Assembly (NCBI GenBank): GCA_039680665.1
Contig: JBDKSM010000035.1
Span: forward strand, 337 to 64,336
DNA: 64,000 nt
DNA from: Syntrophaceae bacterium
Lineage (GTDB): Bacteria > Desulfobacterota > Desulfomonilia > UBA1062
Direction of reading: 5' to 3'
Position 1 is the first letter of the stretch. Each line of letters opens with the position of its first letter. Of this stretch, positions 7,427 to 30,644 are shown piece after piece. The translations under genes and the position numbers were made by a program. The notes below the pieces were generated by a model. It saw only the letters and a program-made list of their open reading frames with translations. It searched no databases and was not told the DNA's origin.

Positions 7427-7439
7427 CGCCTTCCCTCCC

Positions 7440-8207: not shown

Positions 8208-8926
8208 ACCTCACGATAGCCCTTGCCCAGATAGGCGCGCTGGATCTCGTTGCTGGCCTTGAGCTCAGATGTCGGGCCTTCCATGACTATGCGCCCGGTC
8301 TCGACCACATAACCCCGCTGCGCCAGGCCCAGCGCCATGCGTGCGTTCTGCTCCACCAGCAGCAGGCTCAAGCCCTCTGTTTGGTTCAACTCTTTGATCT
8401 TTTCATAGATCTGGCTCACCATAATGGGCGCCAGGCCCATGGAAGGTTCATCCAAAAGCAATACCTTGGGCCGGGCCATCAAGGTCCGGGCAATGGCCAG
8501 CATCTGCTGCTCACCGCCCGAAAGTGTGCCCGAGAGTTGCCGTCGGCGCTGTCCCAGTATGGGGAAGAGTGCCTCCATGGCAGCCAAATCCTTCTTGATC
8601 TTGGCTCGATCCTTACGCGAATAGGCCCCCAGCACCAGGTTGTCATGCACGCTCAAGCCCCTAAACAACCGCCGACCTTCGGGCACATGCCCGATGCCGC
8701 GCTTGAGGATGCGCTCCGAGCTCAGATGGGTTATTTCGTTCTCACCCAAGACGATCTCGCCGGAGGCCGCTTTCACGATCCCGGAAATCGCCCGCAGGAT
8801 TGTGCTCTTGCCGGCGCCGTTGCCGCCGATCAGGGCCACGATCTCGCCCGGATTCACATGCAGGCTCACCCCCTTGACGGCATGGATATGCCCGTAATAG
8901 GTGTGCAGGTTCCTGACCTGGAGCAT
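8198..8926 (-). CDS. ABC transporter ATP-binding protein, LivF-like
   Basis: MLQVRNLHTYYGHIHAVKGVSL...GGNGAGKST; overlaps its neighbours by 10 nt and 1 nt (translational coupling). Confidence 0.85.
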   Translation of the reverse strand: MLQVRNLHTYYGHIHAVKGVSLHVNPGEIVALIGGNGAGKSTILRAISGIVKAASGEIVLGENEITHLSSERILKRGIGHVPEGRRLFRGLSVHDNLVLGAYSRKDRAKIKKDLAAMEALFPILGQRRRQLSGTLSGGEQQMLAIARTLMARPKVLLLDEPSMGLAPIMVSQIYEKIKELNQTEGLSLLLVEQNARMALGLAQRGYVVETGRIVMEGPTSELKASNEIQRAYLGKGYREVWE

Positions 8927-9792
8927 CAGCGGGCCCCCCCGAAGATCTCAGTGATCTTGACGCGGCCCATGATGCCCTGGGGCCTGAAAACCATCATGGC
9001 CACCAGCAAACCGCCGTAAAAAATATCCTGGTAATCCGCCAGGGGCCGCAGCACTTCGGGCAGCACGGTCAGCAGGGCCGCGCCCAAAAGCGCGCCCGGG
9101 ATACTGCCGATGCCGCCAAGGACCACCATGGACAGGATCATGATGGAGGTGTGCATGCCAAATGTGTGCGGGTTGATGTAGGCCGTATAATGGGCATAGA
9201 GACTGCCGGCCAATCCGGCCCAGAAGGCGCTGACCACGATCGCCAGGGTCTTGTAGCCGTAGATGTTGATGCCCATGAAGCTGGCCGTGATGTCGTTGTC
9301 CCGAATGGCGGCCCAGGCCCGCCCGATCTTCGAGTTCTTCAAGGTATACATACTGACGATCATGAAGCCCAGGATCACGACGCAGAGGAGAAGGAAGCCG
9401 GGTTTGGAATACAGCGGATTGCCGCAGAGCGTCACGGGCGGGATACCCACCAGCCCGTCGGTCCCGCCCGTGATGTCGAGGTTCATGAATATGATCTCGA
9501 CGATAATCCCGAAGCCCAAGGTGACGATGGCCAGGTAATCATCCTTGACGCGCAGCGCCGGCAGCGCCAGCGCCAGACCTAACAAGGCCGTAATAATCCC
9601 TGCGCTGCCGAAGGCTACCGGAAAACCGAGCCCCTTGATCATGATGATCCCGCTGGCGTAGGCCCCAATACCGAAGAAGGCCGCATGCCCGAGCGACACC
9701 AGTCCGGCGAAACCCACGCTGATGTTCAGGCTCAAGGCCAGCATGGCGAAGATGGCCACCATGATGAGCACATGCAGGATATATACACTCAT
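8926..9792 (-). CDS. Branched-chain-amino-acid-type ABC permease, LivM-like
   Basis: Polytopic membrane protein in operon between LivH-like and LivF-like genes. Confidence 0.8.
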   Translation of the reverse strand: MSVYILHVLIMVAIFAMLALSLNISVGFAGLVSLGHAAFFGIGAYASGIIMIKGLGFPVAFGSAGIITALLGLALALPALRVKDDYLAIVTLGFGIIVEIIFMNLDITGGTDGLVGIPPVTLCGNPLYSKPGFLLLCVVILGFMIVSMYTLKNSKIGRAWAAIRDNDITASFMGINIYGYKTLAIVVSAFWAGLAGSLYAHYTAYINPHTFGMHTSIMILSMVVLGGIGSIPGALLGAALLTVLPEVLRPLADYQDIFYGGLLVAMMVFRPQGIMGRVKITEIFGGAR

Positions 9793-10646
9793 TACTGCCG
9801 CCCCAAGATGCCGCGCGGCCGGATGATGAGCACCAACACCAGCGCGATGAAGGCGAAGGCGTCCTTGAAGTGCGAGGACAGGTAGGCCGCACCCAGGTTT
9901 TCGGCCACGCCCAGCACCAGACCGCCTATGATCGCGCCTGGAATGGAGCCCACTCCGCCCAGGATGGCGGCCGAAAAGGCCTTGAGTCCCGGCAGCAGTC
10001 CCATATTCGGGGCAGTGGCATTATAGTACATCGCCATCAGGATACCGGCCACCCCGCTCATGGCCGAACCCAAAAGGAAGGTGGTTACATAGGCGGCGTT
10101 GACATTGATGCCCGAAAGTTTGGCCGCATCACTGTCCATGGCCACGGCCATGATGGCCTTGCCGTGTTTGGTCAGATTCAGAAAGAGCCAGAGCATCACC
10201 ATGAGCGCGAGCGAGACCAGAATGATAACCAGCTGCAGCTCCGTAATTTCGGCCCCAAAAAATTGATAGCTGTGCGGATGGAATTCCATAGGAAAGGACC
10301 GGTCCTCGGGTCCGAAGATGAGCCGTGCCAGCGAGCTTAAGAAGATAGAAGCGCCAATGGCGCTGATGAGGGGAATGAGTGGATGCATGCCGCGCACAGG
10401 CCTGAAGGCGAAGCGTTCCAGAAGCACCCCCACCAGGCAGGCCGCCGCAATACCTGCGACAATTGCCAGTACCAGGTTGCCCGTGGCGGCCAAGGTTAGT
10501 ACGGCGCCGAAGGCGCCGTACATGTAGATCTCACCCTGGGCAAAGTTGACAATCCCCAAAATGCCGAAAATCATGGTGTAGCCTAGGGCGACCAGCGCAT
10601 ACACGCAGCCCGCCGCCAGGCCGTTTACCAGTTGCTGTAAAAGCAC
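9792..10646 (-). CDS. Branched-chain-amino-acid-type ABC permease, LivH-like
   Basis: MLLQQLVNGLAAGCVYALVALGYTMIFGILGIVNFAQGE... typical LivH N-terminus. Confidence 0.85.
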   Translation of the reverse strand: MLLQQLVNGLAAGCVYALVALGYTMIFGILGIVNFAQGEIYMYGAFGAVLTLAATGNLVLAIVAGIAAACLVGVLLERFAFRPVRGMHPLIPLISAIGASIFLSSLARLIFGPEDRSFPMEFHPHSYQFFGAEITELQLVIILVSLALMVMLWLFLNLTKHGKAIMAVAMDSDAAKLSGINVNAAYVTTFLLGSAMSGVAGILMAMYYNATAPNMGLLPGLKAFSAAILGGVGSIPGAIIGGLVLGVAENLGAAYLSSHFKDAFAFIALVLVLIIRPRGILGRQ

Positions 10647-10647
10647 A

Positions 10648-11775
10648 TTATTTGACCTTTACGTATTTGCCTTTGACCACCTTGAAGATGTACACGCCCT
10701 GCTTGACCACATCGCCGTTGTTATCGAAGCTCAACTTGCCGGTCACGCCGTCGAAATCCTTGACCGTGTCGAGATAGCCTCTCATCTGGTCCGGGGCGCC
10801 GCCCTTGGTGGCAATGGCCGTGGACACCAGGCGCGTCATGTCATAGGTGATAGCCGCGAACATGGCGTTGTTGGGTTCCTTGGTGTCGGCCTTGACGATC
10901 TTGTAATAGGCATCCTTGAACTTTTTGTTGGTGGGGGTGTTGTAATCCTCGTCATACTCGCTGCAGTTGATATGGCCTTCGGAGGCCTTGCCGGCCAGCT
11001 CGATGTACTTGGGCGCCATGTCACCGAAGACGCCCATGGATTGGGCCGTGATGCCCATGCGGCGGGCCTGGGAGATAGCGGGAGCGGTCTCCTGCAGATA
11101 GCCGGGGATAAAGAGCAGGTCAAAGGGCTTCTGCTTGAGCTTGGTCAGCTGGGCCGAGAAGTCGCGGTCGCCGACCATGAAGCTCTCCGTGCTGATTACA
11201 GGAATGCCGAGTTCAGCGAAACACTTGGTGAAGAGATCATTGCAGCCCTTGCCATAAGGCTCGTTGCTGTACAGGATGACCGGTTTGGTCGTCTTCAGGC
11301 TTTCCTTGGCGTATTTGGTGAGGCTTGCGGCCTGCTTGTCAATGCGGGTACAGCCGCGGTACACATATTCGCCCGCATCTGAGATCTTGGGCGAAGTGCC
11401 GTTGGGGGTGACGATGACGATCTTATCTCGCTGGGCCAAAGGCGCCACGGCCAACACGTTGCCGCTCATCATCGGGCCGATGATGACCTTGACCTTGTCC
11501 ATGGAGACCAGTTTCTGATAAGCGGCCACCGAGGCAGGGGCGCTGTCCTTCTCATCCTCGAAGATCACCTTGAGTTGTTTGCCGTTTATGCCGCCCGCGG
11601 CGTTGATTTCCTTGACCGCGATCTCGACACCGCGCTTGGCGGGCAGCCCGTCCGATGCGCCCTGCGAGAGCCTCAAAATGGCCCCGATCTTGATCTCCTC
11701 GGCAGCCCGTGCCTCGCTCAAACCTAAGCCCAATACCACCATTGCGACCATCACCAACAACCATAGTCTCTGCAT
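10648..11775 (-). CDS. Periplasmic substrate-binding protein of the ABC importer (LivK/Leu-Ile-Val-binding family fold), 375 aa
   Basis: Trimmed to MQRLWLLVMVAMVVLGLGLSEARA (signal peptide) with RBS GGAAGGAGGAAGGG. The ORF-track N-terminal extension is rejected. Confidence 0.8.
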   Translation of the reverse strand: MQRLWLLVMVAMVVLGLGLSEARAAEEIKIGAILRLSQGASDGLPAKRGVEIAVKEINAAGGINGKQLKVIFEDEKDSAPASVAAYQKLVSMDKVKVIIGPMMSGNVLAVAPLAQRDKIVIVTPNGTSPKISDAGEYVYRGCTRIDKQAASLTKYAKESLKTTKPVILYSNEPYGKGCNDLFTKCFAELGIPVISTESFMVGDRDFSAQLTKLKQKPFDLLFIPGYLQETAPAISQARRMGITAQSMGVFGDMAPKYIELAGKASEGHINCSEYDEDYNTPTNKKFKDAYYKIVKADTKEPNNAMFAAITYDMTRLVSTAIATKGGAPDQMRGYLDTVKDFDGVTGKLSFDNNGDVVKQGVYIFKVVKGKYVKVK

Positions 11776-11815
11776 CCCTTCCTCCTTCCCAAATTTCAAT
11801 TCGTATCTCGTTGTT

Positions 11816-11849
11816 GATAAAAAAGGCCATGGGGATTGCCCATGGCCTT
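11816..11849 (-). terminator. Intrinsic terminator/attenuator hairpin in the 5' leader of the liv-like/paaK operon
   Basis: Minus strand: AAGGCCATGGG-caatc-CCCATGGCCTT followed by TTTTTTATC, ending ~40 nt upstream of the SBP start codon. A candidate promoter (TTGACA-18-GATAAA) lies ~150 nt further upstream on the minus strand. Confidence 0.55.
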
Positions 11850-12093
11850 GTGTGTCTCTCTCGCGCACCCGGCCTATGGGCACCGTTTTTTCCGATAATA
11901 ATAAACGTAGCGATAGGCCTGAATGCATGCGTAGTTTCTCATAGCAGCGTTTATCCTTCGGGGAGGCCCTGGCTGTCAAGCGAAAAAGCAGGAAGGGATT
12001 AAAGGCGCTTCGTATACCAATCCGTAAAACGGATGTCTCTCAGGACATCAGGGCAACCAAGCCGGATGAGTCCTGGAAAGATACGAAGGCCGG

Positions 12094-13299
12094 CTACCGT
12101 AAAACCTGGCTGATATCATCGAGCAGGCGTTCGAGCCGGTTATCCGTGGCAAGTACGCTGGGCAGGGAAACGGTCACTTCCAGCCGGTCGGCGCAGCCTG
12201 TCAGGACCACGAAAGACGGGATACCGTCCACCCGCGGCGGTATCAAAAAAACCGTATCGGCCTGAAAACCGGCCCCGCGAAAATTGTCCCGATTGAAACG
12301 GCCCAGGTTGGAAAGCAGCGTCGAGGAGCTATACGTGCCCTTATAATGCCAGCTCAGGGTGATCAGTTTCAACCCGATCTGGAGCAAGGCGATCGGGATC
12401 ATGTCCACCACGGTTCCGCCCTCAAAGAGCATGCAATCATATTTCTCGTCCAGCTGCCGTTTGACCTCGCGGGCAATATCTTCGGGGCTGTCCTCAGGGG
12501 TTACCTCGACATAGAGGGCCATGGACATATTGTTGGTGGTCCGCAGACCGGGCTGCCGTTGTCTCAGATCCACGGGGATCGCCAGCATGACCGGACCAGA
12601 ACCATACTGCCGGGCGGAATGCGCCAGGGCCCAGCCGACCTTTCCCAGAACCTTGGAGAAGCTCCCCGTAAAGGTGAGCCTTTTCCAGCGCGTGCCCGCT
12701 TGGAACCCTCGCGCTCGCCCGGTGGGCGCGATGCTGTTGACCGGCGGCATTATGCGGGTGCGGTCGGTGAATTGGCGCAGAAAAGTGACCATACTGGGAG
12801 GATCTTCAAGCGAACCCAACGGCTCTTCATCGCGCAGGACCCGGAAGATATCCTCGGCCCAGTACACCGTGCCCATGCCGTCCATGGCGCCGTGGTTGGA
12901 CCTGAACACCAGGCGTGTCACCGGGCCGCTTTCCAGGTACAAGACCTCACAGGTAGGCCCGCGGTATGGCAGACCCGCCATCAGAAAGGGGGCGTTCTCC
13001 GAGCCGCGACCGTCCCAGGTAACGTCCTTCAGGCAGCGGACAGGCGGTGTCAGGCCTGAATCCAGCCAATAACAACCGCGCAAGGCGCCCCTCAAGATCA
13101 GCCGACTGCCCGGATTGGCCTCTGAGGCCTTGGCGACGGCGTCTTCCAAGCGGCCCTGGTCAATAACGCCCTGCCCCTCAACCACCACCTGGTTGGCATA
13201 CGGGGGGGCGACCGCATCGGCGGCCAGCCACAAACGTTCCACAATCGGCAAAGGTCTTTGGAATCGTGTGCCCATATTGGGTTTCTTATCGGCAGACAA
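12094..13299 (-). CDS. Stand-alone condensation-domain-like acyltransferase (401 aa), paralog of the N-terminal domain of the NRPS at 21231..25175
   Basis: C1-like motif PLPIVERLWL and an active-site variant SNHGAMDG (HxxxDG). Alignable along its full length with NRPS residues 1-400 (e.g. GKVGWALA, PVDLR..QPGLR, NLGR/NLGH blocks). Confidence 0.7.
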   Translation of the reverse strand: MSADKKPNMGTRFQRPLPIVERLWLAADAVAPPYANQVVVEGQGVIDQGRLEDAVAKASEANPGSRLILRGALRGCYWLDSGLTPPVRCLKDVTWDGRGSENAPFLMAGLPYRGPTCEVLYLESGPVTRLVFRSNHGAMDGMGTVYWAEDIFRVLRDEEPLGSLEDPPSMVTFLRQFTDRTRIMPPVNSIAPTGRARGFQAGTRWKRLTFTGSFSKVLGKVGWALAHSARQYGSGPVMLAIPVDLRQRQPGLRTTNNMSMALYVEVTPEDSPEDIAREVKRQLDEKYDCMLFEGGTVVDMIPIALLQIGLKLITLSWHYKGTYSSSTLLSNLGRFNRDNFRGAGFQADTVFLIPPRVDGIPSFVVLTGCADRLEVTVSLPSVLATDNRLERLLDDISQVLR

Positions 13300-18216: not shown

Positions 18217-20490
18217 CTATTTGAGCACGAAGGTCCGGCTGGCGCCCTCGAAGGCATGCAGCGTGTGGTCTTGGGTTTTGTAATCGCCATGGTAACGGAT
18301 GACATAGCGTCCCGGTTCAGCGTCAGAGGTGTTCCATACGATGGTGGCCGTGGAGCTGCGAGAATCACCCCGCTCCCAGATGAATTTGGTGTCCGGGTCC
18401 CAATCGCGGCGCACGATCTGATAGCCGCCGCCGGTTTCCTGCTCGACGGTCAGGAAGGTGTCCATGGAACGGCGGTTGTTGCGGGGGTTCGCCCCCTGGA
18501 AGGTCGCCTTGACCTTATCGCCGATGCTATAGGAGGCAGCTGGCTGGCTGATCACCTGGCCGTACGTTTTCCCGCTCGGCGCCTCATCGTATGGCATCGC
18601 GGTTGAGAAATCGAATTGATCGTTGCGTAAATCGAGCGGAAAAGGACCGGATGCCACAGGCGTACCGGCGAGGATGGCATCGCAGAGCTTGGCGTATTCC
18701 TGCTGGAAGGCTTCCAGCTCGTGCGGGCCGAACATGGTGCCGGCGCCTTCATAGCCCTGCTTCCCATATTCCTCGCCGGTTGCCAGGTAGGAGGCATAGG
18801 TATTGGACAATCCGGCGATCACGGCATGATCGACCTCACGATCCTGAAAACGCGAGAGCAGCGTGTTCTTAACGCGTCGGCCCGCCATGGTGGTAATCTC
18901 GGTGGGCTGGGCCGCGATGACAAGGTTGCCGATCTTGAGCACCTGCACCGGCAGCACCTGGGGCATCAAGGGGATGAATTTGACCAGGTTGAACGTCATC
19001 AGTCCCGTGGGCAGGATCACCGGTTTGACCCCCTGGCACTCGATATAATCCTTGGAAAGGGTGGTGGGCCAGATAAGGCCGATGGCGCCCGGCAAGAGCG
19101 TGGCCAGCAGCGTTTCCTGGATATCGGTGCCGCTGTTCCAGTCAATGGCGCCCACGTCATCTCTGGTTACGCCTTCGCTGAAGAGTGGGTACGGCGTGGG
19201 GTTGTCACAAGGGCTGCCGTAGGAATAGGAGGCCCCCATGCCGGAGGGACAGGTCGAGCAACCGGCCGCGTCAACCGCAAGAGAGCGCATGTCAACGAAC
19301 TTATGGCGGTAATCAACCGAACCGTGCACGGGTTGCATAACGCCCTGATAGAGCTCAAGGGCCTTGCGGTACTGCAGGGTGGCTTCAAGTTTGAGCACGA
19401 GGTTTTCCTCAATATCGGCCTCGCCCTTGGCCTCATCCCAGGGGAAGCCCTGGCGCGCGATCTCGCCTTCAGGGTCGGTGATTCCGTAGGCCTTCAGGGC
19501 TTTCACGGCGTCGGACTGCGAGAACGCATGCGTGGTGAAAGGCACGTTGGGCGTGACATCCCCGGAGTTGCTCTGCGCGAAGGCGGCCACGAACGTGAGG
19601 GGATCGGTATAATCGCCGCCCATATGCTTCTCGAACAAATAGGCGGCATGTCCCTTGCTGTCGCCGCTGATGAGATGATTGGACGGACCGATGCAATCGG
19701 GATGGACGGCGAACCAGTTGAGCATGCCGAGCCCCACTTCCCGGCCCTCGGCATCGTACCCCACGAATTTGAGCACGGTCATGGTGGTGTCGATGTTGCC
19801 GTCATAGGCGGCGCGCTCGGCCGCCGGATTGTTGTCATAGGCAACGGATGAACGGTTCCAGCCTGCAGCGGCAAGGTTGCCTTGGGCGATATAGATCCTG
19901 CCCGGCCTCAGGTTGGCATGGGCACGTTTGATGGAAGCGAAGATGCCGTCCGTCACGGCATCGAAGCTGTCCTGGATGAAACCCAGATTGGGTACGTTGT
20001 AGAGAAAATAATGCGAGAACCCCGCCACGGAAGAGTGGCTGTGGGTAGCGCTTAAGCAGACATTGTCGTTATTGTAATAGGGGCTGAGCTCGGGGTCGGC
20101 GGCCAGCCGACGGGCGATCTCCTGCTTGACGGATTGGCACATGGCCCATGTATCGGCATTCACAAAAACCACCCGTCTGGCAGGGGTTGCGGGATCGGCG
20201 ATGATAAAGCTTCGCGCCCACAGACGCATGGAAATTCCGGCGGTCTTCTGATCTGAAAAGGCGAAACCGCCCATAGTCACTTCCGAGGCCGGCCCGGTGA
20301 TATCATAGATGCCCACACCGATGAGGTAACGATCTCCATTGGCCGCATTGTCGGAGGTGGACCGTGTATCGCTGCTCCTTATCCCTGAATCTTGAGATGT
20401 ATGAGAATCCCCGGATTGGCATCCATTTAAGCCCAGCACCATGATCGCAATCAGCAGTAGTCCGAATCTTCCCGCAAGACCCCGCTTCAT
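18217..20490 (-). CDS. Neutral/alkaline ceramidase family amidohydrolase, predicted lipoprotein (757 aa)
   Basis: Lipobox LGLNGC followed by a Ser/Thr/Asp-rich linker. Full-length collinearity with neutral ceramidases: YLIGVGIYDITGP, SATHSHS, MLNWFAVHP, AAFAQSNSGDV, TFLTVE, IRYHGDYK. Confidence 0.85.
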   Translation of the reverse strand: MKRGLAGRFGLLLIAIMVLGLNGCQSGDSHTSQDSGIRSSDTRSTSDNAANGDRYLIGVGIYDITGPASEVTMGGFAFSDQKTAGISMRLWARSFIIADPATPARRVVFVNADTWAMCQSVKQEIARRLAADPELSPYYNNDNVCLSATHSHSSVAGFSHYFLYNVPNLGFIQDSFDAVTDGIFASIKRAHANLRPGRIYIAQGNLAAAGWNRSSVAYDNNPAAERAAYDGNIDTTMTVLKFVGYDAEGREVGLGMLNWFAVHPDCIGPSNHLISGDSKGHAAYLFEKHMGGDYTDPLTFVAAFAQSNSGDVTPNVPFTTHAFSQSDAVKALKAYGITDPEGEIARQGFPWDEAKGEADIEENLVLKLEATLQYRKALELYQGVMQPVHGSVDYRHKFVDMRSLAVDAAGCSTCPSGMGASYSYGSPCDNPTPYPLFSEGVTRDDVGAIDWNSGTDIQETLLATLLPGAIGLIWPTTLSKDYIECQGVKPVILPTGLMTFNLVKFIPLMPQVLPVQVLKIGNLVIAAQPTEITTMAGRRVKNTLLSRFQDREVDHAVIAGLSNTYASYLATGEEYGKQGYEGAGTMFGPHELEAFQQEYAKLCDAILAGTPVASGPFPLDLRNDQFDFSTAMPYDEAPSGKTYGQVISQPAASYSIGDKVKATFQGANPRNNRRSMDTFLTVEQETGGGYQIVRRDWDPDTKFIWERGDSRSSTATIVWNTSDAEPGRYVIRYHGDYKTQDHTLHAFEGASRTFVLK

Positions 20491-20521: not shown

Positions 20522-21193
20522 CTATGCCATTTTATACCCTGACGGCAGACTCATAAAGCTGAAAACCAAGGTGTTTATCACGATGCTTCCTACCAGGAAT
20601 TCGAAGTCCGGCGGATACGGCCCGATTGGCCGCATGAGCCTGCCGCGAAAGCCTTGACCGTGCCATGTCAGTCCGGCGTCCATAAAATCAAGGTATACGC
20701 CGATCTGGGGGAAAAAGGCCTTGAATGCGGCCTCCTTGGCTGAAAAAAGCCGTACCAGACGCAGCGCATCCTGACCCACCCAGGCGCGTTCCTCATCCAT
20801 GCCGACCACCTGGCTGAACTCTTGATCGAACCGCTCCGGAATGGATTCAAGATCAATGCCGATCCCGGCGGCATGGTCCCGTGAACAAACGGCACAAACA
20901 GCGATCCCGGCCGTATGGGTGATGGAGCCGACATAGCCTTCCGGCCAGAGCGGTTCATACAAAGGACCCTGAAGGATGGGCGGCGGCGGGCTGAAACCGA
21001 GTTGCTTGAGGGCGGCATGCGCGGCGGCGCGACCGAGCACGAACTCGTCCCGGCGTTTGAGCGCCATGCGTGGACTTAAGAGCCGTGCCTCAGCAGGATC
21101 GAGGGAAAATCCCGCCGCTCCGTGCTTGGTCCTAACGGCAAAACCCACATACCCCTGGAATGGCGATCTGATCATGGCCGTCGGGAGCGACAA
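20522..21193 (-). CDS. Sfp/EntD-type 4'-phosphopantetheinyl transferase
   Basis: Motifs GIGIDLE and FSAKEAAFKA; 37 nt downstream of the NRPS stop, on the same strand. Confidence 0.8.
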   Translation of the reverse strand: MSLPTAMIRSPFQGYVGFAVRTKHGAAGFSLDPAEARLLSPRMALKRRDEFVLGRAAAHAALKQLGFSPPPPILQGPLYEPLWPEGYVGSITHTAGIAVCAVCSRDHAAGIGIDLESIPERFDQEFSQVVGMDEERAWVGQDALRLVRLFSAKEAAFKAFFPQIGVYLDFMDAGLTWHGQGFRGRLMRPIGPYPPDFEFLVGSIVINTLVFSFMSLPSGYKMA

Positions 21194-21230: not shown

Positions 21231-24200
21231 TCATGCCTCCATGGTCATCCGCGGCGTCGCTGACTGTCTCAGGCCGGAAACTTTGCCCGCTTCGGCGGCA
21301 TCAGAGCGCCACGCCTCTTCAAGGGCCTTGTCCGCAACTCCGGTTTCTCCCTCTCCCAGATAGCAGGCAAACGCATCGATCGTCATATATTTGTAGATCA
21401 TCATCAGGGGTATATCGCGCACAAGCTCCTGTTTCAAGCGGTTCTTGAGCATGATGACCTTGAGTGAATCACCACCCAGATCGAAGAAATTATCATGGAT
21501 GCCCACCCGCTCAAGGCCGAGTACTTCCGCCCACAGACGTGCGATTACTGTCTGGAGCTCGTTCTGCGGGGCCGTATACTCACCCGTGGCGGCGTCCGTG
21601 ATCTTGTAGGCATTCAGGACCTGCCGGTCGAGCTTGCCGTTGGTTGTGAGCGGCAACCGCTCCAGAAAGACGAAGTGCTTGGGGATCATATATTCCGGCA
21701 GGTAGCCCTGGAGGAATTCCGTGAGGATGCTTTTCAGGTTTACGTCTGCGGCGCCGCGGCCCTCTACGGTAGTGTCGTTATCTTCCGCGCGGCACACGAC
21801 ACAAGCGAGCAGGTGTTTGCCGGAGCCGCGCTCGTCTGAGGCGGCGATTACCGCCGCCTCGGCCACGGTGGGGTTCTTGAGCAGGGCGGCCTCGATCTCT
21901 CCCAGCTCAATGCGATGCCCATGGATCTTGACCTGGAAGTCCTCGCGGCCTAAAAACTCGATATTCCCATCCGGCAGCCACCGGCCGAGATCTCCGGTTT
22001 TATAGAGGCGTTCCCCGCTCTCGGGGTGGACTATGAAGCGTTGGCCGGTCTTGTCCGGATCATTCCAGTACCCCAGCGCCAGACCGATGCCGCCGATATG
22101 GAGTTCCCCGGCCACCCAGAGCGGACATGGATTGAGGTTCGCGTCCAGAACGTAGAAACGTTGATTCGCCATCGGCTTGCCGTACGGTATGCTGACCCAT
22201 TCTTTCTGCACCTCGGTAACGGGAAACAGGATGGACCAGATCGAGGCTTCGGTGGCGCCCCCTAAGCTGATGATTTCGGCTCCGGCATTCTGCGCGCGGA
22301 TACGCGCCGGCAGGCTTACCGGGATCCAGTCGCCGCTCAGCATGACCAGCCGCAAACAATCCGGTATGGCCTGAGGCGTCTGCTCGGCATAATCGACCAG
22401 CAGTTGCATCAAGGCCGGCACCGTGTTCCAGAGGGTGACCGAGTGGCGTAAGAGCAGGTCCGACCAGTGGGCGGGGTCCTGCCTGTCCTGGGCATCGGGG
22501 ATGACTACGGCCCCGCCGGCGGCCAGCAGGCCGAAGACATCGTAGACCGACAGATCGAAATTCAAGTTGGATAGCGCCAGAGTGCGATCTTCAGGTCCCA
22601 CCCCGAAGCGCTGGTTGATATCCCGGATGGTGTTGACCGCTCCTTGATGATCAATCATGACCCCCTTGGGACTGCCGGTCGAACCGGAGGTGAAAATAAC
22701 GTAGGCCAGATCGGTCGCCTGCTGGACCGAAGCGGGAGACAAATCATCCACGGCGGGCAGATCGTTCCGGTCGACGCACAGACACGTCCATTCGGTCAGC
22801 CAGGTCAGCTGCGCGTGGATACGGGTCTGGGTCAGGACAACCTTGACCCTGGTCTCTTCCAGCAGGTAGCGCAGGCGCTCCCGCGGTAAGCCGGGATCGA
22901 GCGGTACGTAAGCCGCGCCGGAGAAGAGCACCCCCATCACGCCCACGATCTGCTCCCACCCCTTTTCCATGAGCACCGCGACACAGGTGTTGGGCTCGGC
23001 GCCATGTACGCGCAAGTAGTGCCCGAGACGCATGGCCCTGTTCAACAATTCGCCGTAGCTTAAGCTGCGCCCGGGGGTGATCACGGCCGGCGCCTCCGGA
23101 TGCTGCAAAGCCTGCTCCAGGAACAGGGTGTGCAGCAGGTTGCTGGAAAAAGGCGCACGGGTTGCATTGACCTCATCATATAGGGCCTGATGCTCAACGG
23201 GTATGGCCGGGCAGCGGCACTGGTCCCAGCAGACTTCAGGAGAAGCAAGCACTTCCAGGTAGCGGTGATAGGACGCGAACATATCCTGAGCTACGCCCGA
23301 CTCAAAGACCTCATCTATACTGTCCCAGGTGAAGACCAGGTGTCCATCCAGCTCGCATGCCCGGTGATTAAGCCAGATCTGCGGCGCATCCGAGAGCTTG
23401 TCCGGCAACGAACCACCAGACCGCTCAGACACATCCTCCAAATCCGCGTACAGCATAACGGGGATTGGGGGAACGGGGCTTAACCCACTGATACGACCGA
23501 AGCCCGGAAGGGTCTGAAGCTCGTCCAAGAACCGCTCGTCAAGTTTAGTCTTGAGCTCTTCGGAGAGCAGCTGGGTGCACAGCGCAAAATCGTTGGCCGC
23601 CAGAGCATCCACCGGCAGGAGGGTCGTCACGCTGACGGGCTGGCCTGACGGTGCATCAGGGCCTTCGGCCGAAAGGCCTGGTCTCTGGCTCACACTCATG
23701 CCGATGGTGAAGCGCGGGGTCTTGCTCCAACGGGCCAGAACGCCGGAAAAGGCGCTGGCGATAACGGCTGTGGGAGTGACTCCCAGGCTGCATGCCCGGT
23801 CCTTAATCAATTGCCACTTTTCTGCATCCAGGCGCGCACTGCGGCGGGTCACCCGCGGCGGGGTTGCCGCAGAGGGGTTGGCGACCAAGGGCAGATCGGG
23901 GACGGGCGGCATGTTGGGCAGGCGTTCCTGCCAGAATGTCGAGGGCTCCGAAGGCGGCTTCGCTGGGCCGGCCTGGAGAGACTTCGCATCTTCAGGCGCC
24001 AAGGCCCGGCCGATATCCGCCAGCAAACGCTCAAAACGTCCTGTGTTGCCGAGTTGACGAGACACCGCGATGGTTAATTCTTCGCAGCCCTGACAACCGG
24101 CCAGCGCGACAAAAACCGCCGCCCGATCCAGGGGGGGGGGGACGAAGAAACAGGTCTCGGCACGGAAACTGTCGGCGCAAAAGGCTTGTGTATCGATATG

Positions 24201-25175
24201 ACCCAGATTGGAAATCATGGCGGAAGCATTATACCGGCCCCGCCGATAATTCAGTTTCGAAAGCATGGTAAACCCAAGACCGAGGAGCTTGAGCGGCGTC
24301 ACTTCAATGAATTCCGTACCGACATACGGCATGCAATCCGTCTTATTGTCGAGCTGTTTGAGAATATCATGGGTTATGGATTCAGGGCTCGATGCCTGCG
24401 TGATATCTACATACAGGGCGGTCGTCAGATTGCTGGTACACCGCAGGCCCGGTTGGTGAGATCGCAAGTCCACTGGCACGATCAAGCGCACCAGTCCATC
24501 ACCGTTTCTCCATGCGGATTGCGCCAACGCCCATCCTACCTTGCCTAATAAGACGGGCAGCGCACCCTTAAACGTCAGGCGGCGCCACATGATACCGTCC
24601 TGACCATCGGGCCGGGACATACCCGTGGGGGCGATGGCACGGTCGGCGTAGACATCACGGGTCTGCTGCGTGATGCTGTTCATGATCTGTTTGTCGGTGA
24701 TGGCCCATTGCGTGCCCAGGAACGGAGCGCCCTGCATGATCCGGAAAACATCTTCGGCCCAGGTTATCACCCCGCGGCCATCCATCACGCCATGGCTGGC
24801 CCGGAAAATAATGCGCGGCGTAGACCCCTCAACCCACAGCACTTCGCAGGTAGGTCCGCTATGGGGCAATCGGTCATGCAGGAAGGGCGCATTTTCAGGG
24901 CCGTACCCGTCCCATGCCTCTCCGGAGACGACCCTGACGCAAGGCGCCCGACCGGAATCCACCCAGCGCGAACCCCGCAGAGACCCTTTCAATACTAAGC
25001 GCGTCCCCGGATTAAGCTCGGAAGCCTTTCCTACCGCCGCGGCCAGGTGACCCACATCCAGGCTACCGCGGCCTTCCAAGACCATTTGGACGACAAAAGG
25101 CGAGGAGGCGCTGTCGATGCTCAGCCAGGACCGTTCAATATACGAAAGAGGTCGATGCAAATTGTTCCTAGTCAT
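21231..25175 (-). CDS. Single-module NRPS-like protein (~1314 aa): condensation-like domain (aa 1-400, active-site variant SHGVMDG), partial second condensation-like region (aa ~415-660), adenylation domain, peptidyl-carrier domain; no TE/R domain
   Basis: Start trimmed to MTRNNLHRPLSYIERSWL (ATG 25173-25175 with RBS GGAGGA). A-domain cores LSYGELL (A1), GAAYVPLDP (A2), LAYVIFTSGSTGSPKG (A3), NFDLSVYDVF (A4), GELHIGGIGLALGYW (A6), YKTGDL (A7), GREDFQVKIHGHRIELGEIE (A8), NGKLDR (A10). PCP motif FFDLGGDSLKVIML. Confidence 0.9.
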   Translation of the reverse strand: MTRNNLHRPLSYIERSWLSIDSASSPFVVQMVLEGRGSLDVGHLAAAVGKASELNPGTRLVLKGSLRGSRWVDSGRAPCVRVVSGEAWDGYGPENAPFLHDRLPHSGPTCEVLWVEGSTPRIIFRASHGVMDGRGVITWAEDVFRIMQGAPFLGTQWAITDKQIMNSITQQTRDVYADRAIAPTGMSRPDGQDGIMWRRLTFKGALPVLLGKVGWALAQSAWRNGDGLVRLIVPVDLRSHQPGLRCTSNLTTALYVDITQASSPESITHDILKQLDNKTDCMPYVGTEFIEVTPLKLLGLGFTMLSKLNYRRGRYNASAMISNLGHIDTQAFCADSFRAETCFFVPPPLDRAAVFVALAGCQGCEELTIAVSRQLGNTGRFERLLADIGRALAPEDAKSLQAGPAKPPSEPSTFWQERLPNMPPVPDLPLVANPSAATPPRVTRRSARLDAEKWQLIKDRACSLGVTPTAVIASAFSGVLARWSKTPRFTIGMSVSQRPGLSAEGPDAPSGQPVSVTTLLPVDALAANDFALCTQLLSEELKTKLDERFLDELQTLPGFGRISGLSPVPPIPVMLYADLEDVSERSGGSLPDKLSDAPQIWLNHRACELDGHLVFTWDSIDEVFESGVAQDMFASYHRYLEVLASPEVCWDQCRCPAIPVEHQALYDEVNATRAPFSSNLLHTLFLEQALQHPEAPAVITPGRSLSYGELLNRAMRLGHYLRVHGAEPNTCVAVLMEKGWEQIVGVMGVLFSGAAYVPLDPGLPRERLRYLLEETRVKVVLTQTRIHAQLTWLTEWTCLCVDRNDLPAVDDLSPASVQQATDLAYVIFTSGSTGSPKGVMIDHQGAVNTIRDINQRFGVGPEDRTLALSNLNFDLSVYDVFGLLAAGGAVVIPDAQDRQDPAHWSDLLLRHSVTLWNTVPALMQLLVDYAEQTPQAIPDCLRLVMLSGDWIPVSLPARIRAQNAGAEIISLGGATEASIWSILFPVTEVQKEWVSIPYGKPMANQRFYVLDANLNPCPLWVAGELHIGGIGLALGYWNDPDKTGQRFIVHPESGERLYKTGDLGRWLPDGNIEFLGREDFQVKIHGHRIELGEIEAALLKNPTVAEAAVIAASDERGSGKHLLACVVCRAEDNDTTVEGRGAADVNLKSILTEFLQGYLPEYMIPKHFVFLERLPLTTNGKLDRQVLNAYKITDAATGEYTAPQNELQTVIARLWAEVLGLERVGIHDNFFDLGGDSLKVIMLKNRLKQELVRDIPLMMIYKYMTIDAFACYLGEGETGVADKALEEAWRSDAAEAGKVSGLRQSATPRMTMEA
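24131..24141. repeat. G11 (C11 on coding strand) homopolymer inside the NRPS CDS, encoding PPP in ...FFVPPPLDR...
   Basis: Direct count: gcccgatcca + 11 G + acgaag. Confidence 0.9.
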
Positions 25176-25506
25176 ATGTTCCTCCATACTGTCGGATCTC
25201 CTCAGGTGCTGATGGCAAGCATGTCACAAGCTCCTTGCCGATCGCCCGTGGCGGAAATAAATTTCATTTACATGAAAACTATTTCCCATCCACCATTCTA
25301 CGCCACTACGCCAAAACACCTCCAGTCCTCTGTTTGCGCCCGCAATTCGATCGCAACGCGACCGCGATGCTCATTTATGCTTGTTTTTCTGCAACACGCA
25401 TGCCATCTAACGAACCCTACCTACCGGTCATTTATCAGCCGCACTTCTTCCCAAGGCGCCATGATAACCTTGACCGGCGCTCGATTTTCACGTAGTCAAA
25501 GGCCTC

Positions 25507-26519: not shown

Positions 26520-28374
26520 CTAAAGCGCAATGTCCACCTGGTAGGCGTGGCTGTCAACGGTGCGCGACATCGGATAAGCCGCTTTTTCCAGGACCTTGAG
26601 CATGGACTGGTTGTCGCGCCAGACGATCGCCCGCACGATTTCATAGGCAAGCGTGCGGCCGATGGCGACCATGGACTCGAATAGGTAGGTCCCTATACCC
26701 AGACGTTGCCAGGCCGGGTCCACCATGGCAGCGAACTCGCACACCCGCCGACCGCCGCTCTCTTCGTCCGGAGCGATATGCGCCACGGCCACGATGCGTT
26801 CCTGCTTGTCGCCTAAGGCCTGGACAACCAGGGCCATGGATTTCGTGTAATCGACATTCACCAGATACTGCGCCTGTTTATGGTGCAATGAGGCCATATG
26901 ACGCAGAAAGCGATGGAACCGGTCGTCCTTGCTCATGGCATAGAACAGATTCTGTATGGCGCGCTCGTCGGTCACCTTGACCGGCCGTATATGCACCTCC
27001 CTGTCGCCGAAGGCCCGGATCTGTTCGTGAGCGCTCGGGTAACAGGCCTCCGCAGGCGGCAGGGCCTGGTCTTCGTAGAGGTATTTTTTCCCCTTGGCTT
27101 CTTCGAGCAGCCATGGTCTGAATTTGGGGTGGGCAATCGTGATGAGCGCCAGCGCCCGTTCGCGGATGGATTTTCCGAACAGGTTGACGCACCCGTATTC
27201 GGTGACCACATAATTGACATCGCTCTGGGTGGTGACGATCCCGATCCGACTGTCGGTAAATTCCGGGACGATGCGGGAGAAACGGCCGTCACGCGAGGTC
27301 GAGCGCAGCGCGATGATGCCCTTGCCGCCGAGGGTGAACATCGCCGTGCGGTTGAAAACCGCATGTCCCAAGGCCCCGAAGAACGACGTGGGCTCGCCGA
27401 GGCCGACGCATGACTGCCCGGTCAGGTCGATCTCGACCGCTCCGTTGATGGCGATGAAGCGTTCATGGGAAAGAATCCGGGCCGGGTCGCTGATAGAGGA
27501 CAGGGCAAGGATTTCGACATCACGATTTTCGTGTACATACTCGAAGACCTTCTGGCTGCCGATGCACAAGCTTGAGGTGACGGCTGGGGCCTCAACCACA
27601 GCTGCCCCTGTGGCTAGCGCCCCGGCGGCGGCAAGATCGACGATGCGATCGGTGATGATCTCCGAATGGATACGCAAGTTTTGCTTGTCCTTCAAAAATT
27701 GCATGGCGGCGTCGGGAATCCGGCCGAACCCCACCTGAATAGTGGATCCGTCCTCGACCAAACGGGCCACGTTGCGTCCCACCGCAAGGGTCTCGGGATC
27801 AGGCTCCTCCTGACGGAAGGTCACGAGCGGCTCGTCGTGCTCCACGATATAATCGATATCCGTTAGCGGGATCAAACTATCGCCCCGGGTGATGGGCATA
27901 TGCCGGTTGACCTGGGCGATCACTCTTTCGGCCTTCCCAACGATGGCGCGCATGATATCCACCATAATGCCCAGACTGGGCATACCCTCCTCGTTGGGCG
28001 GGCTCAGTTGGATGATGGCGGTGTTGATCCTGATGTAGCCTTCATCAAACAGCTTGAACATGCCCAATGTGGAGAGAGGTAGATGGTCGGCCTGACCTTC
28101 CGCAAAGGCCGATCTCATCGCCGGGGCGACGAAGAAGGTCTGTATCCGGAAACGGGAGCCGAAATCACCGCCATAATCCGCATAGCTCCGTAAGGGCACG
28201 GAGGTATACACGTGGACATCGCTCAGGTGCATGTTATCGAAGATGAGGTGTTTGGCCAGATACTGAGGTTCTCCGCATCCGGACTCGACATACACGCATG
28301 ACCCCGGCTGGATAAGCTCCAGCAGGCGCTCAACGGTAGTTATCTTGCTCGTATACTCCTCTTTCCACATCATA
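26520..28374 (-). CDS. Acetyl-CoA hydrolase/transferase (ACH) family protein fused to a C-terminal GNAT acetyltransferase domain
   Basis: N-terminal two ACH lobes; C-terminal ~170 aa with the GNAT core (…QRLGIGTYLFES…). Start trimmed to ATGATG at 28374. The track start at 28415 is a TTG. Confidence 0.75.
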
Positions 28375-28622
28375 GCGGGCCCATTATCTCTACCACTGCG
28401 TTTTTCGTATTTCAAACCAAGGCCAACACCCTATCGTCATGTCGCGGCTGAGAAATTAACCGATCACCGCGATGATCTTCCAGGGCTATTGATCTCGGAG
28501 GCGCCAATTATCCGTGAAAATGCGGGGCGATTCCATTGGACAAAAGCCTGCAAGCCATGGCACAGTAAGATGCCCCCTAAGGGACAAATCCTTGTCAGGG
28601 CCGGGGAGCACGAACCATTGAG

Positions 28623-30644
28623 GTGCATCGCATGATCCAATCAAGGTTTCCCAACTTGATGTCACCCGGGCGGATAGCCGGGATCACGATCAAAAACCGC
28701 ATCGTGATGCCGGCCATGGGTATGAACATGTCCGACGGCGGGTATGTGAACCAGGCCGTGATCAATCATTATACCGAGCGCGCCAAGGGCGGCGCAGGGT
28801 TGATCGTCGTGGAGGTCACGTGCGTGGACGCGCCCCTGGGTCTAAATACCAAGGACATGCTGGTGATCGATGACGATGCCTATATCCCGGGCTTCGCACG
28901 CCTGACCCGCAGCATCCACGCGCACGGCGCCAAATGCGTGCTGCAGATCAGCCACACCGGACGCGGCGCCAAGCGCAGAAACACGGGCGGCCAGCCGGTC
29001 GGACCGTCGGCGGTCAAGATGCCCTTCAGCATGGTGACCGGCCTGGAGGGGGAAGAACCCCGCGCCCTGACGGATGGCGAAATCAGCGCTATTGAAGATA
29101 AATATGCCGCAGCGGCCTTGCGCGCCAAAGAGGCCGGCTTCGACGGCATCCAGGTCCATGCGACCGGCTACTACCTGGTCTCGCAATTCCTCTCCGCCAC
29201 GGCCAACCGGCGCACCGATGCCTATGGCGGCAACGCCCGCCAGCGCGCGAGCTTTGCGCTCAACATCCTCAAAAAGATCAAAGACCGAGCCGGCGCCGAC
29301 TTCCCGGTCATCTACAAGCTTTCGCTCCTGGAACTGGGCAAGCAGGGCGGGATCGGCCTGTTGGACGGCCTTCTCTACGCCTACCTGCTTCAGGAGGCCG
29401 GCGCCGATGCCATCGAGGTCCTGGCCATGTCGTACAAGGACAAACCGACCCTTCGCGATGTACCCGACAGCGCGCAAGGCACGGGACTCACCTTTCCGTT
29501 GGCCAGACTGTTGAAACTGGCCCGCGTCCTGGGCCGTTCAACCAGACCGAATCTCTTCCTCGGGCGCAAGGCCATGCGGATCCCGCTGATCTCAGGCGGC
29601 CGCGCCTTCGATCCGGTCCTGGCCGAAAAAGCCCTGAGCAAAGGCCTGACCGATTTCGTATTCATGGGTCGGGGTCTGCTCGCCGAACCGAACTTGCCCG
29701 CCATGATCGAGGAGGGCACCCATGACCTGGCACGGCCCTGTATCGGCTGCGGCCGCTGCATCGACAATCAGCTCCAGCACCAGAGCCGGGCCGTGTGTTC
29801 GGGCAATGCCGTGATCGGCAGGGATGACAATGATTATACCATCCCGCCCGCTGAAACCCAACGGAAAGTCCTGGTGATCGGCGGCGGACCGGGGGGCATG
29901 GAAGCCGCCCGGATCGCCGGCTACCGGGGCCATGCGGTGCTCCTGGCGGAAAAAGACATGCGTCTGGGCGGCCAACTGCACTATGCCGTGGCGCCGCCCC
30001 ACAAACACAACCTCAAGCCGCTCATCACCTATTACGAAAAGCAACTAGCTCAGACCGGCGTAACGGTCGAGCTCAACCGGAACATACAGGCCCACGAGGT
30101 CATCGCGGGCGGATACGATGCGGTCGTCTGCGCCACGGGAGTGGCTCCGGCGGCGCTGCCGATCCCGGGCTTCAACCTGGCCCATGTCATCAACGCCAAA
30201 GCGGTGCTGTCCGGTAGAACCACCGGCCGCACGGTCGTGATCATCGGCGGCGGCCTTGTCGGCTGCGAAACGGCTGAGTTCTTGCTCAAACACAAACGGC
30301 GCGTCGCCATCGTGGAGATGCTCCCCGAACTTGCCGCCAAGATGCCGGCCGCCGGCCGCACGATTCTGCTGGGCCATCTCAAGACGCTGGGCGCATATTT
30401 CTATACCGGCTATAGATGCCGTGAGATCACCGCAAAAACCGTTGCCATAGAGGAAGAACGCGGGGTCGGTAGGGTGCTCAAGGCCGATACGGTAGTCATC
30501 GCCGTGGGTGACAAACCGGACACGGCGTTGTATGATGCCTTAAAGGGAAAGGTCGCCGAGCTCTATCTGATCGGCGATGCCGCCCGGCCGGAAGGCATAG
30601 CCGAAAGCGTCGCCGCCGGCTACTATACCGGCTTAAGGATTTGA
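28623..30644 (+). CDS. 2,4-dienoyl-CoA reductase-like enzyme: Old-Yellow-Enzyme TIM barrel + 4Fe-4S + FAD/NAD(P)-binding oxidoreductase domain (673 aa)
   Basis: OYE-like N-terminus (IKNRIVMPAMG...HYTERAKGGAGLIVVE), Cys motif CIGCGRCIDN, C-terminal GGGPGG dinucleotide-binding motif. Confidence 0.8.
   Translation: MHRMIQSRFPNLMSPGRIAGITIKNRIVMPAMGMNMSDGGYVNQAVINHYTERAKGGAGLIVVEVTCVDAPLGLNTKDMLVIDDDAYIPGFARLTRSIHAHGAKCVLQISHTGRGAKRRNTGGQPVGPSAVKMPFSMVTGLEGEEPRALTDGEISAIEDKYAAAALRAKEAGFDGIQVHATGYYLVSQFLSATANRRTDAYGGNARQRASFALNILKKIKDRAGADFPVIYKLSLLELGKQGGIGLLDGLLYAYLLQEAGADAIEVLAMSYKDKPTLRDVPDSAQGTGLTFPLARLLKLARVLGRSTRPNLFLGRKAMRIPLISGGRAFDPVLAEKALSKGLTDFVFMGRGLLAEPNLPAMIEEGTHDLARPCIGCGRCIDNQLQHQSRAVCSGNAVIGRDDNDYTIPPAETQRKVLVIGGGPGGMEAARIAGYRGHAVLLAEKDMRLGGQLHYAVAPPHKHNLKPLITYYEKQLAQTGVTVELNRNIQAHEVIAGGYDAVVCATGVAPAALPIPGFNLAHVINAKAVLSGRTTGRTVVIIGGGLVGCETAEFLLKHKRRVAIVEMLPELAAKMPAAGRTILLGHLKTLGAYFYTGYRCREITAKTVAIEEERGVGRVLKADTVVIAVGDKPDTALYDALKGKVAELYLIGDAARPEGIAESVAAGYYTGLRI

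Follow-up and report, generated by a model that had tools for sequence, protein, structure and literature searches.

A nonribosomal peptide synthetase of a Syntrophaceae bacterium combining a domain of an unannotated condensation-like family with half of a heterocyclisation domain

Modules with the domain order heterocyclisation-adenylation-thiolation (Cy-A-T) occur in nonribosomal peptide synthetases (NRPSs) such as BmdB, PchE, HMWP2/Irp2, EpoB and FmoA3, where the Cy domain is intact and its C-terminal lobe lies on the A domain. In the second Cy domain of HMWP2 (HMWP2-Cy2), the catalytic residues are the dyad T1830/D1862 and the helper Q1864 (PMC9547227). Truncated remnants of condensation (C) domains in front of starter A domains, and C-terminal C subdomains that modulate A domains, also have precedents (PMC7253712; bioRxiv 10.1101/2021.08.23.457306). 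A further relative is AzeD (PDB 8S6L), the founder of the 'C_standalone' clade, which acts as a dehydratase on a free bicyclocarbamate and whose clade members are all stated to be stand-alone (bioRxiv 10.64898/2026.07.17.738954). Here we describe an NRPS gene from a 64,000-nucleotide stretch of a Syntrophaceae genome (assembly GCA_039680665.1, contig JBDKSM010000035.1; hereafter the window). It encodes a complete condensation-like domain of an unannotated family (C*), a linker, the C-terminal lobe of a Cy domain (deltaCy), an A domain and a T domain, an architecture that is a genuine, unusual variant of known machinery.

The coordinates of all features are collected in Table 1, and residues are numbered throughout on the 1318-residue translation from the first ATG (25187). 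The probable translation start, already given in a preliminary description of this DNA, is the second ATG at 25175, which has a Shine-Dalgarno-like GGAGG just 5' and yields a product of 1314 residues that is 100% identical to the NCBI entry 'amino acid adenylation domain-containing protein [Syntrophaceae bacterium]' (P0033). Pfam recognised AMP-binding (residues 691-1041, 2e-85), AMP-binding_C and PP-binding (3e-14) in the protein; a Condensation match stayed below threshold and covered residues 416-504 only, equivalent to profile positions 195-283. In a Pfam scan of the whole protein, no thioesterase (TE), reductase (R) or terminal C domain was found after the T domain, beyond which there is a tail of 38-43 residues. 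This tail is 53% identical to that of the orthologue L001, with a ratio of nonsynonymous to synonymous substitution rates (dN/dS, calculated against L001 here and below) of 0.37. The preliminary description had likewise recorded the lack of these three domains, together with a full C-like unit followed by an N-terminally truncated one; both units are borne out by the domain matches and the structural model presented below.

The N-terminal domain C* belongs to a family that lacks annotation. Residues 1-396 had no Pfam match at E ≤ 10 and did not fall within the Condensation family (PF00668), the NCBIfam scan and the PDB sequence search returned nothing for C*, and the hidden Markov model of PapA_C (PF16911) gave no above-threshold match. 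A search with residues 1-416 found only 'hypothetical proteins' of ~400 residues without Pfam domains. By structure, residues 1-400 have a two-lobed fold of the chloramphenicol acetyltransferase (CAT) type, with the active site between the lobes. Their structural relatives, with the corresponding figures in parentheses, include the NRPS C domains ObiF1 (26.8) and CDA-C1 (26.3), the Cy domain of PchE (25.7), PapA5 (24.9), SgcC5 (23.3), VibH (20.0), and many BAHD acyltransferases. On its own, C* aligns with both lobes of AzeD (378/433 residues, 17% identity), and a profile of the C* family compared with the PDB matched only AzeD (E 2e-5), in the N-lobe alone. C* is therefore placed in the condensation/CAT superfamily, the same as that of C domains, in an unannotated family of its own; an origin from an unrelated, well-characterised acyltransferase family, which the preliminary description had named as the finding that would overturn its view, is not what was observed.

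The two motif strings reported earlier for this region, LSYIERSWL and SHGVMDG, were located at residues 14-22 and 131-137. The second is the HHxxxDG signature with its catalytic second histidine in place and the first one replaced. Such a single-histidine variant is indeed present, as had been pointed out, but it is not exceptional, the first histidine being replaced in about half of the family. The family consensus is HHxVMDG; the alignment of homologues shows no exception at D136 and hardly any at H132. Of 180 family members, 91 have H at the first position, 30 have L, 16 F, 13 S and 12 N; the second histidine is kept in 178 and lost in two, and 87 combine it with another residue at the first position. 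Other motifs of the family are the C1-like ERxWL, and PVDLR...NLT and SNLG, which resemble the C4/C5 region of C domains. C* keeps 34 of the 35 family-conserved residues, H132 and D136 included, and its dN/dS is 0.18. Judged by these residues, the domain is probably active.

The second C-like region is of different origin. Residues ~416-660 match only the C-terminal halves of Cy domains in the PDB, namely those of EpoB (residues 299-534, E 9e-27), Irp2 (208-451), PchE, HMWP2, BmdB and FmoA3. The Cy N-lobe with its DxxxxD motif is absent, and the only Cy residues matched are those from about position 200 or 300 to the end. In the alignment, T1830, D1862 and Q1864 of HMWP2-Cy2 correspond to Tyr580, Asn607 and Arg609 of deltaCy, and the position of the catalytic Asp is occupied by His in L001. 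When the residues invariant in 11 intact Cy-A-T modules were taken as a reference, deltaCy was found to keep 19/35 (54%) overall. By segment, the figures are 8/11 for residues 431-499, 5/17 for residues 500-607, which include the GDFTS-like motif and the dyad, and 12/13 for residues 608-690, which lead into the A domain. Because the N-lobe is absent and the Thr, Asp and Gln are replaced, deltaCy cannot be a working Cy domain. Purifying selection persists (dN/dS 0.31), and from its residues deltaCy is best described as a relic that has lost catalysis and that selection still maintains, probably as a scaffold for the A domain. An earlier reading of residues ~415-660 as the post-C4 half of a C domain holds in that only a C-terminal half is present, but the half is specifically a Cy vestige whose catalytic residues are gone, not a generic C domain. 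The linker between C* and deltaCy is 47% identical to that of L001 (dN/dS 0.32). The possibility that C* is a diverged copy of the lost Cy N-lobe was also considered and rejected; the profile-profile comparison with Cy domains (hhalign) gave an E of 0.2, with a topologically sensible alignment.

The AlphaFold model of residues 1-1196 was built from an alignment that combined orthologues, homologues of C* and, after trimming, Cy-A-T modules. Structure prediction had been proposed in the preliminary description as the way to tell one pseudo-dimeric unit from two domains, and the model has two: C* (predicted local distance difference test, pLDDT, ~90) and deltaCy (core 80-97) are separate folded units, connected by ~24 residues (399-422) with a pLDDT of ~30-34. 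The predicted template modelling score (pTM) is 0.60, and the placement of C* relative to the rest is undefined. Together, deltaCy and the A domain superimpose on the C-A didomains of McyB-C1A1 (648 residues at 3.9 Å), Txo2 (653 at 3.7 Å) and BmdB (638 at 4.4 Å), of which the A domain by itself explains only ~430-480 aligned residues. The model thus indicates that deltaCy is set on the A domain in the canonical C-lobe arrangement. A single C domain with a long insertion is ruled out, as C* covers both lobes of AzeD and a disordered linker precedes deltaCy.

The A domain is of the usual Cys type found in Cy modules. It was recognised by TIGR01733 (9e-132, above cut-off) in addition to the AMP-binding family PF00501, the core motifs A1-A10 were located, and the residues invariant in Cy-A-T modules are kept at 97% in the A core and 96% in the A sub-domain (dN/dS 0.13). 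For the A4-A5 specificity region, the best PDB matches were the Cy-module A domains of FmoA3, BmdB and PchE. Extraction of the Stachelhaus code had been suggested beforehand, and the code read from the alignments, DLYNMSLIWK, is Cys-type. The nine pocket positions visible in these alignments are D-L-Y-N-L-S-L-I-W in BmdB (Cys) and D-L-F-N-L-S-L-I-W in PchE, so that 8/9 agree with BmdB and the sole difference is L/M. The same ten letters are shared by every orthologue, the most distant being 60% identical, and by a Cy-A-T module named 'pyochelin synthetase' by the Joint Genome Institute. The canonical cysteine code of Stachelhaus, from 1999, is reportedly DLYNLSLIWK. Cysteine is therefore the predicted substrate. 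The preliminary description was right in finding all the A core motifs, but its unusual A5, WNTVPALMQ, was a mis-assignment: this segment aligns with INFVPSML of LgrA and WNTVPAIM of BmdB, both of which also lie between A4 and A5, and the real A5 is SLGGATEASIWS. In the T domain (dN/dS 0.18), the phosphopantetheine Ser is residue 1240 in GGDSL (LGGDSL, residues 1237-1242).

A continuous C*-deltaCy-A-T open reading frame (ORF) was found in at least six orthologues from independent assemblies, with identities spanning 60-87%. Identity is 82% for L001, from a metagenome-assembled genome of the Deltaproteobacteria, 85% for P0034 and 80-81% for P0035, P0036 and P0037. The most distant, P0039, is 60% identical over deltaCy-A-T and 56% across residues 1-1196; its motif is ALHGVMDG, and it has LEHH at the dead Cy site. 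Every segment is under purifying selection, including the C*-deltaCy junction. The nearest stand-alone relative of C*, P0001 (74% identity), is a complete separate gene, and the next are proteins of ~400 residues with ~50% identity. Since the nearest relatives are stand-alone, the fusion is derived, and we infer that the gene arose when a Cy-A-T module minus its N-lobe was fused behind a stand-alone C* gene.

Directly downstream of the NRPS gene, a Sfp-type 4'-phosphopantetheinyl transferase (PPTase) is encoded not only in the window but also in L001, in L082 (the locus of P0034) and in L081 (that of P0039); in L081, its gene overlaps the stop codon of the NRPS. No other neighbour is common to the window, L001, L082 and the otherwise unrelated L081, and the conserved unit thus comprises two genes, NRPS and PPTase. 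In L081 (10581-12925), the pair was also found near two genes for HGD-D (2-hydroxyacyl-CoA dehydratase) and genes for methyltransferases and glycosyltransferases, none of which is shared with the window.

Compared with the described Cy-A-T modules, deltaCy-A-T is 45-52% identical to them and has the same Cys code, A5 and WN(T/S)VPAL segment; in the model, deltaCy takes up on the A domain the position of their Cy C-lobe. The difference lies in the Cy domain, which is intact in those modules, while deltaCy lacks the N-lobe and the catalytic residues and keeps only about half of the invariant positions. In this respect it is like the domain of ThdA also named C* and the C-subdomain constructs of microcystin synthetase, where an N-truncated, presumably inactive C half directly precedes an A domain that it is believed to support or tune. 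Remnants of the ThdA type, however, stand at the protein N-terminus, whereas deltaCy is Cy-derived and has a complete C-like domain of foreign origin on one side and the A domain on the other. AzeD is only a remote relative of C*, with the sequence match confined to the N-lobe; it is a discrete protein, whereas C* is here fused to deltaCy-A-T, and the relatives of C*, by contrast, accompany ligases, acyl carrier proteins (ACPs) and exporters. PapA5/PapA1-3, SgcC5 and VibH are likewise discrete proteins and have no significant sequence similarity to C*, for which an activity of their kind may be proposed by analogy. Single A-T units paired with a condensing domain whose acceptor is a free nucleophile, again without a thioesterase, are found in the beta-alanyl-amine synthase Ebony and in the epsilon-poly-L-lysine synthetase (Pls). 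Unlike the N-terminal C*, their condensing domains are C-terminal and come from other families; the A domain of Pls was among the structural matches to the model.

The preliminary description had concluded that chain release must occur in trans, which does not follow. Because off-loading transferases (PapA5, SgcC5 and VibH) are among the structural relatives of C*, and because the PPTase is the sole conserved neighbour, C* is at least as likely to be the releasing enzyme. We therefore tentatively favour, while holding it somewhat short of probable, a self-contained one-module 'cysteinyl transferase'. In such an enzyme, the PPTase would prime the T domain and the A domain would load L-cysteine on it as a thioester. 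C* would then catalyse the attack on this thioester by a free nucleophile, the amine or hydroxyl of some small molecule or lipid, in the manner of PapA5, SgcC5 and VibH. This transfer would double as the release step, so that neither TE nor R would be needed, and the half-Cy would be a vestige of the Cy-A-T ancestor retained as a C-lobe platform under the A domain. Several points weigh against this proposal. The prediction of cysteine is drawn from similarity of the specificity code only, and the inter-domain geometry comes from an AlphaFold model with a pTM of 0.60. No gene conserved with the NRPS points to the acceptor substrate, the C* family has no characterised member, and its closest solved relative, AzeD, is a dehydratase on a free intermediate and not an acyltransferase. 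In addition, the first histidine of the motif is replaced in C*, though this is common in the family, and a place upstream of A-T is the acceptor-site or starter C position, which favours N-acylation of the tethered Cys over off-loading.

This last point is at the heart of the next explanation, which we consider rather unlikely. C* would act as starter C domains do, to which it corresponds in being N-terminal to A-T, and would acylate the tethered Cys from an acyl-CoA or acyl-ACP, giving an N-acyl-cysteinyl-S-T intermediate to be released by hydrolysis or in trans, the latter as in the preliminary description; the candidates for release in trans would be the stand-alone paralogue of C*, a metallo-beta-lactamase (MBL)-fold hydrolase or a type II thioesterase. 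The first of these is a conserved gene ~8 kb away, and a gene for the second is found divergently upstream in the window and in L082. In L001, however, the MBL-fold gene is a 56-residue remnant and in L081 it is absent, no thioesterase or other release enzyme is conserved, and neither an acyl-ACP nor a ligase gene is conserved beside the NRPS. The canonical C-A-T geometry is moreover inapplicable where a flexible linker of 24 residues and the 240 residues of deltaCy separate C* from the A domain.

Free-standing A-T didomains that feed partners in trans are common. It is conceivable, but doubtful, that this A-T is one of them, loading Cys for enzymes encoded elsewhere, with C* and deltaCy as non-catalytic or regulatory baggage. 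The replaced first histidine and a locus without a clue to the product would be in agreement with this. As baggage, however, C* would hardly be expected to keep all but one of the conserved residues, H132 and D136 among them, or to be more tightly constrained than deltaCy (dN/dS 0.18 vs 0.31), and the fusion is retained down to 60% identity. A non-condensing, AzeD-like role for C*, such as dehydration, beta-elimination or another change of the tethered Cys or of a free substrate, is very unlikely. Although the first histidine of AzeD is likewise replaced (PHxxxDG), the identity of 17% and the profile match to the N-lobe only speak against it, as do the contexts of the family (ligases, ACPs, A-T fusions and exporters), which suggest acyl transfer, and release would be left unexplained. 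Finally, an assembly or gene-calling artefact, in which a truncated NRPS gene was falsely appended to a stand-alone C* gene, might have been suspected from the existence of P0001 as a separate complete gene and from the origin of the window in a metagenome-assembled genome, but is effectively refuted by the same continuous ORF in independent assemblies (L001, P0034-P0037 and P0039) and by the purifying selection across all segments, junction included.

The other genes around the NRPS vary between loci. The paralogue of C* is conserved in L001 and L082 and shows a weak, sub-threshold PapA_C match (19.9 bits vs a cut-off of 30). It adjoins a group of genes (6152-11979, minus strand) encoding a Liv-type ATP-binding cassette transporter (binding protein, two permeases and two ATPases) and a PaaK-like adenylate-forming ligase, the family of which accompanies C* genes in 22 other loci. 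The ceramidase gene was considered as a functional partner of the NRPS and rejected, being absent at that position in L001, L082 and L081; its presence here suggests that it was inserted recently into a Syntrophaceae genome. The MBL-fold gene was set aside in the same way, as it is not conserved in L001 or L081. The gene for an acetyl-CoA hydrolase/transferase with a GNAT fusion lies within 1-3 kb of C* genes in L005, L008, L054 and L082, all loci of the Syntrophales type; it is not conserved in L001 or L081 and was provisionally treated as lineage synteny. Next to it (28623-30644, plus strand) is a gene for a fusion of an Old Yellow Enzyme-type flavin mononucleotide (FMN) oxidoreductase with a pyridine-nucleotide-disulphide reductase, 2,4-dienoyl-CoA reductase-like, which is present in the window and L082 and missing from L001 together with the hydrolase-GNAT gene. 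The remaining window genes are housekeeping genes, encoding lysyl- and prolyl-tRNA synthetases (LysRS, ProRS), RelA/SpoT, IspG and sensor kinases. Scans of the locus for promoters and terminators gave sites no more numerous than in shuffled sequence, and no riboswitch or leader RNA was found in the locus with Rfam.

Table 1. Positions in the window of the NRPS gene, its domains and motifs, and neighbouring genes
Feature	Position	Strand	Description
NRPS gene	21231-25187	minus	single ORF, 1318 residues from first ATG; order C*-linker-deltaCy-A-T
C*	23988-25160	minus	residues 10-400; complete two-lobed condensation/CAT-superfamily domain, unannotated family
SHGVMDG active-site motif	24777-24797	minus	residues 131-137; the family's (H)HxxxDG
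Linker	23922-23987	minus	residues 401-422; Ala/Pro/Ser/Lys-rich, flexible; between C* and deltaCy
deltaCy	23208-23921	minus	residues 423-660; C-terminal lobe of Cy domain
Adenylation domain	21603-23195	minus	residues 665-1195; predicted L-Cys, code DLYNMSLIWK
WNTVPALMQ	22404-22430	minus	residues 920-928; between A4 and A5, carries specificity position 278 (Asn)
A5 motif SLGGATEASIWS	22233-22268	minus	residues 974-985; identical to BmdB A5
Thiolation domain (peptidyl carrier protein, PCP)	21348-21575	minus	residues 1205-1280; PF00550 3e-14
Sfp-type PPTase	20522-21193	minus	37 nt downstream of NRPS; 4PPT_N and ACPS matches
Neutral/alkaline ceramidase	18217-20490	minus	Pfam E 6e-145; between PPTase and FMN reductase
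Stand-alone C* paralogue	12094-13299	minus	401 residues, 47% identical to C*; phmmer 7e-112
Acetyl-CoA hydrolase/transferase	26520-28415	minus	C-terminal GNAT fusion

To estimate the size of the C* family, 1.84 billion cluster representatives were searched exhaustively with HMMER, which gave 596 matches at E ≤ 1e-30, 810 at E ≤ 1e-10 and 1777 at E ≤ 1e-3. The family thus comprises ~600-800 clusters at 50% identity, mostly stand-alone proteins of ~400 residues. Nearly all of the best 150 matches have ~390-420 residues, about a dozen have ~1000-1060, and one (P0036) has the architecture described here. The 99 C* loci found in species-representative genomes fall into three main contexts. In the first (Smithella, Spirochaetota, Syntrophomonas and others), two to four stand-alone C* genes stand in tandem, with a PaaK-like ligase in 22 loci, and their partners include an ACP, a FabA/ApeI-like dehydratase, a flippase-like LPG_synthase_TM protein, PGA_cap, and AcrB/HlyD/OEP exporters. 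These arrays, for example L006, L009, L015, L023, L028, L030 and L033, which also have a weak C45-family match, look like an uncharacterised system for the assembly and export of acylated lipids or glycolipids. In L006, from Smithella, three C* genes accompany those for a PaaK-like ligase, an ACP and an exporter of the resistance-nodulation-division type.

In the second context (Oleispira, Moritella, Hahellaceae, Bermanella and Pleionea), C* lies downstream of a GH3-family adenylating enzyme, two HlyD and AcrB, with GH3 present in about 15 loci. The gene order is an unknown protein of 270 residues, GH3, an unknown protein of 370 residues, two HlyD, AcrB and C* (L043, L044, L048-L053, L055-L062 and L079). 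We know of no description of bacterial GH3 proteins beside a C-like transferase and a pump of the resistance-nodulation-division type. In the third (Dactylosporangium, Streptomyces and Actinoplanes), C* is part of C*-A-T proteins of ~1000 residues, up to three per cluster, with neither a half-Cy nor a thioesterase. Their A-domain code is DLTK(V/I)GEVGK, which we take to be Asn-like. Beside them in these loci (L063 and L071-L078) are a gene for an NDP-hexose 2,3-dehydratase and one that is KAS III-like. In a distance analysis, the actinomycete fusions were mostly nearest to each other, a few were close to stand-alone members, and all were apart from the clade of the window, which indicates an independent fusion. 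The theme shared by the three contexts, C* accompanied by a carrier protein or an enzyme that adenylates, in many cases with an exporter as well, resembles by analogy the logic of PapA/FadD/MmpL.

With regard to NRPS biology, this lineage has dropped the catalytic half of a Cy domain and kept the half that contacts the A domain, and so offers a natural experiment on C-A interfaces that is relevant to the rules of NRPS engineering. The fusion of C* is also at odds with the recent claim that C proteins of the AzeD kind invariably stand alone. With a predicted amino-acid substrate and one co-substrate to find, NRPS and PPTase together are a simple two-gene entry to the chemistry of the C* family. 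It is a bolder suggestion, and quite an unlikely one, that C* domains make up a large and so far unrecognised class of transferases that off-load carrier proteins, spread over anaerobes, marine gammaproteobacteria and actinomycetes, and that the present enzyme is a minimal self-releasing NRPS ligating Cys to an amine or alcohol of primary metabolism. If this were true, the product might be a low-molecular-weight thiol or a cysteinyl-lipid made by a non-ribosomal route rather than by a ligase of the MshC/BshC type. The family, fused to A-T at least twice independently, is invisible to Pfam and NCBIfam, and so probably to Pfam-based NRPS mining; its members are annotated as 'hypothetical', and Pfam-based tools would label the actinomycete C*-A-T proteins as A-T with an unknown N-terminus of 400 residues. 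The architecture itself is a curiosity, and its value lies in exposing a large unannotated family of C-like proteins.

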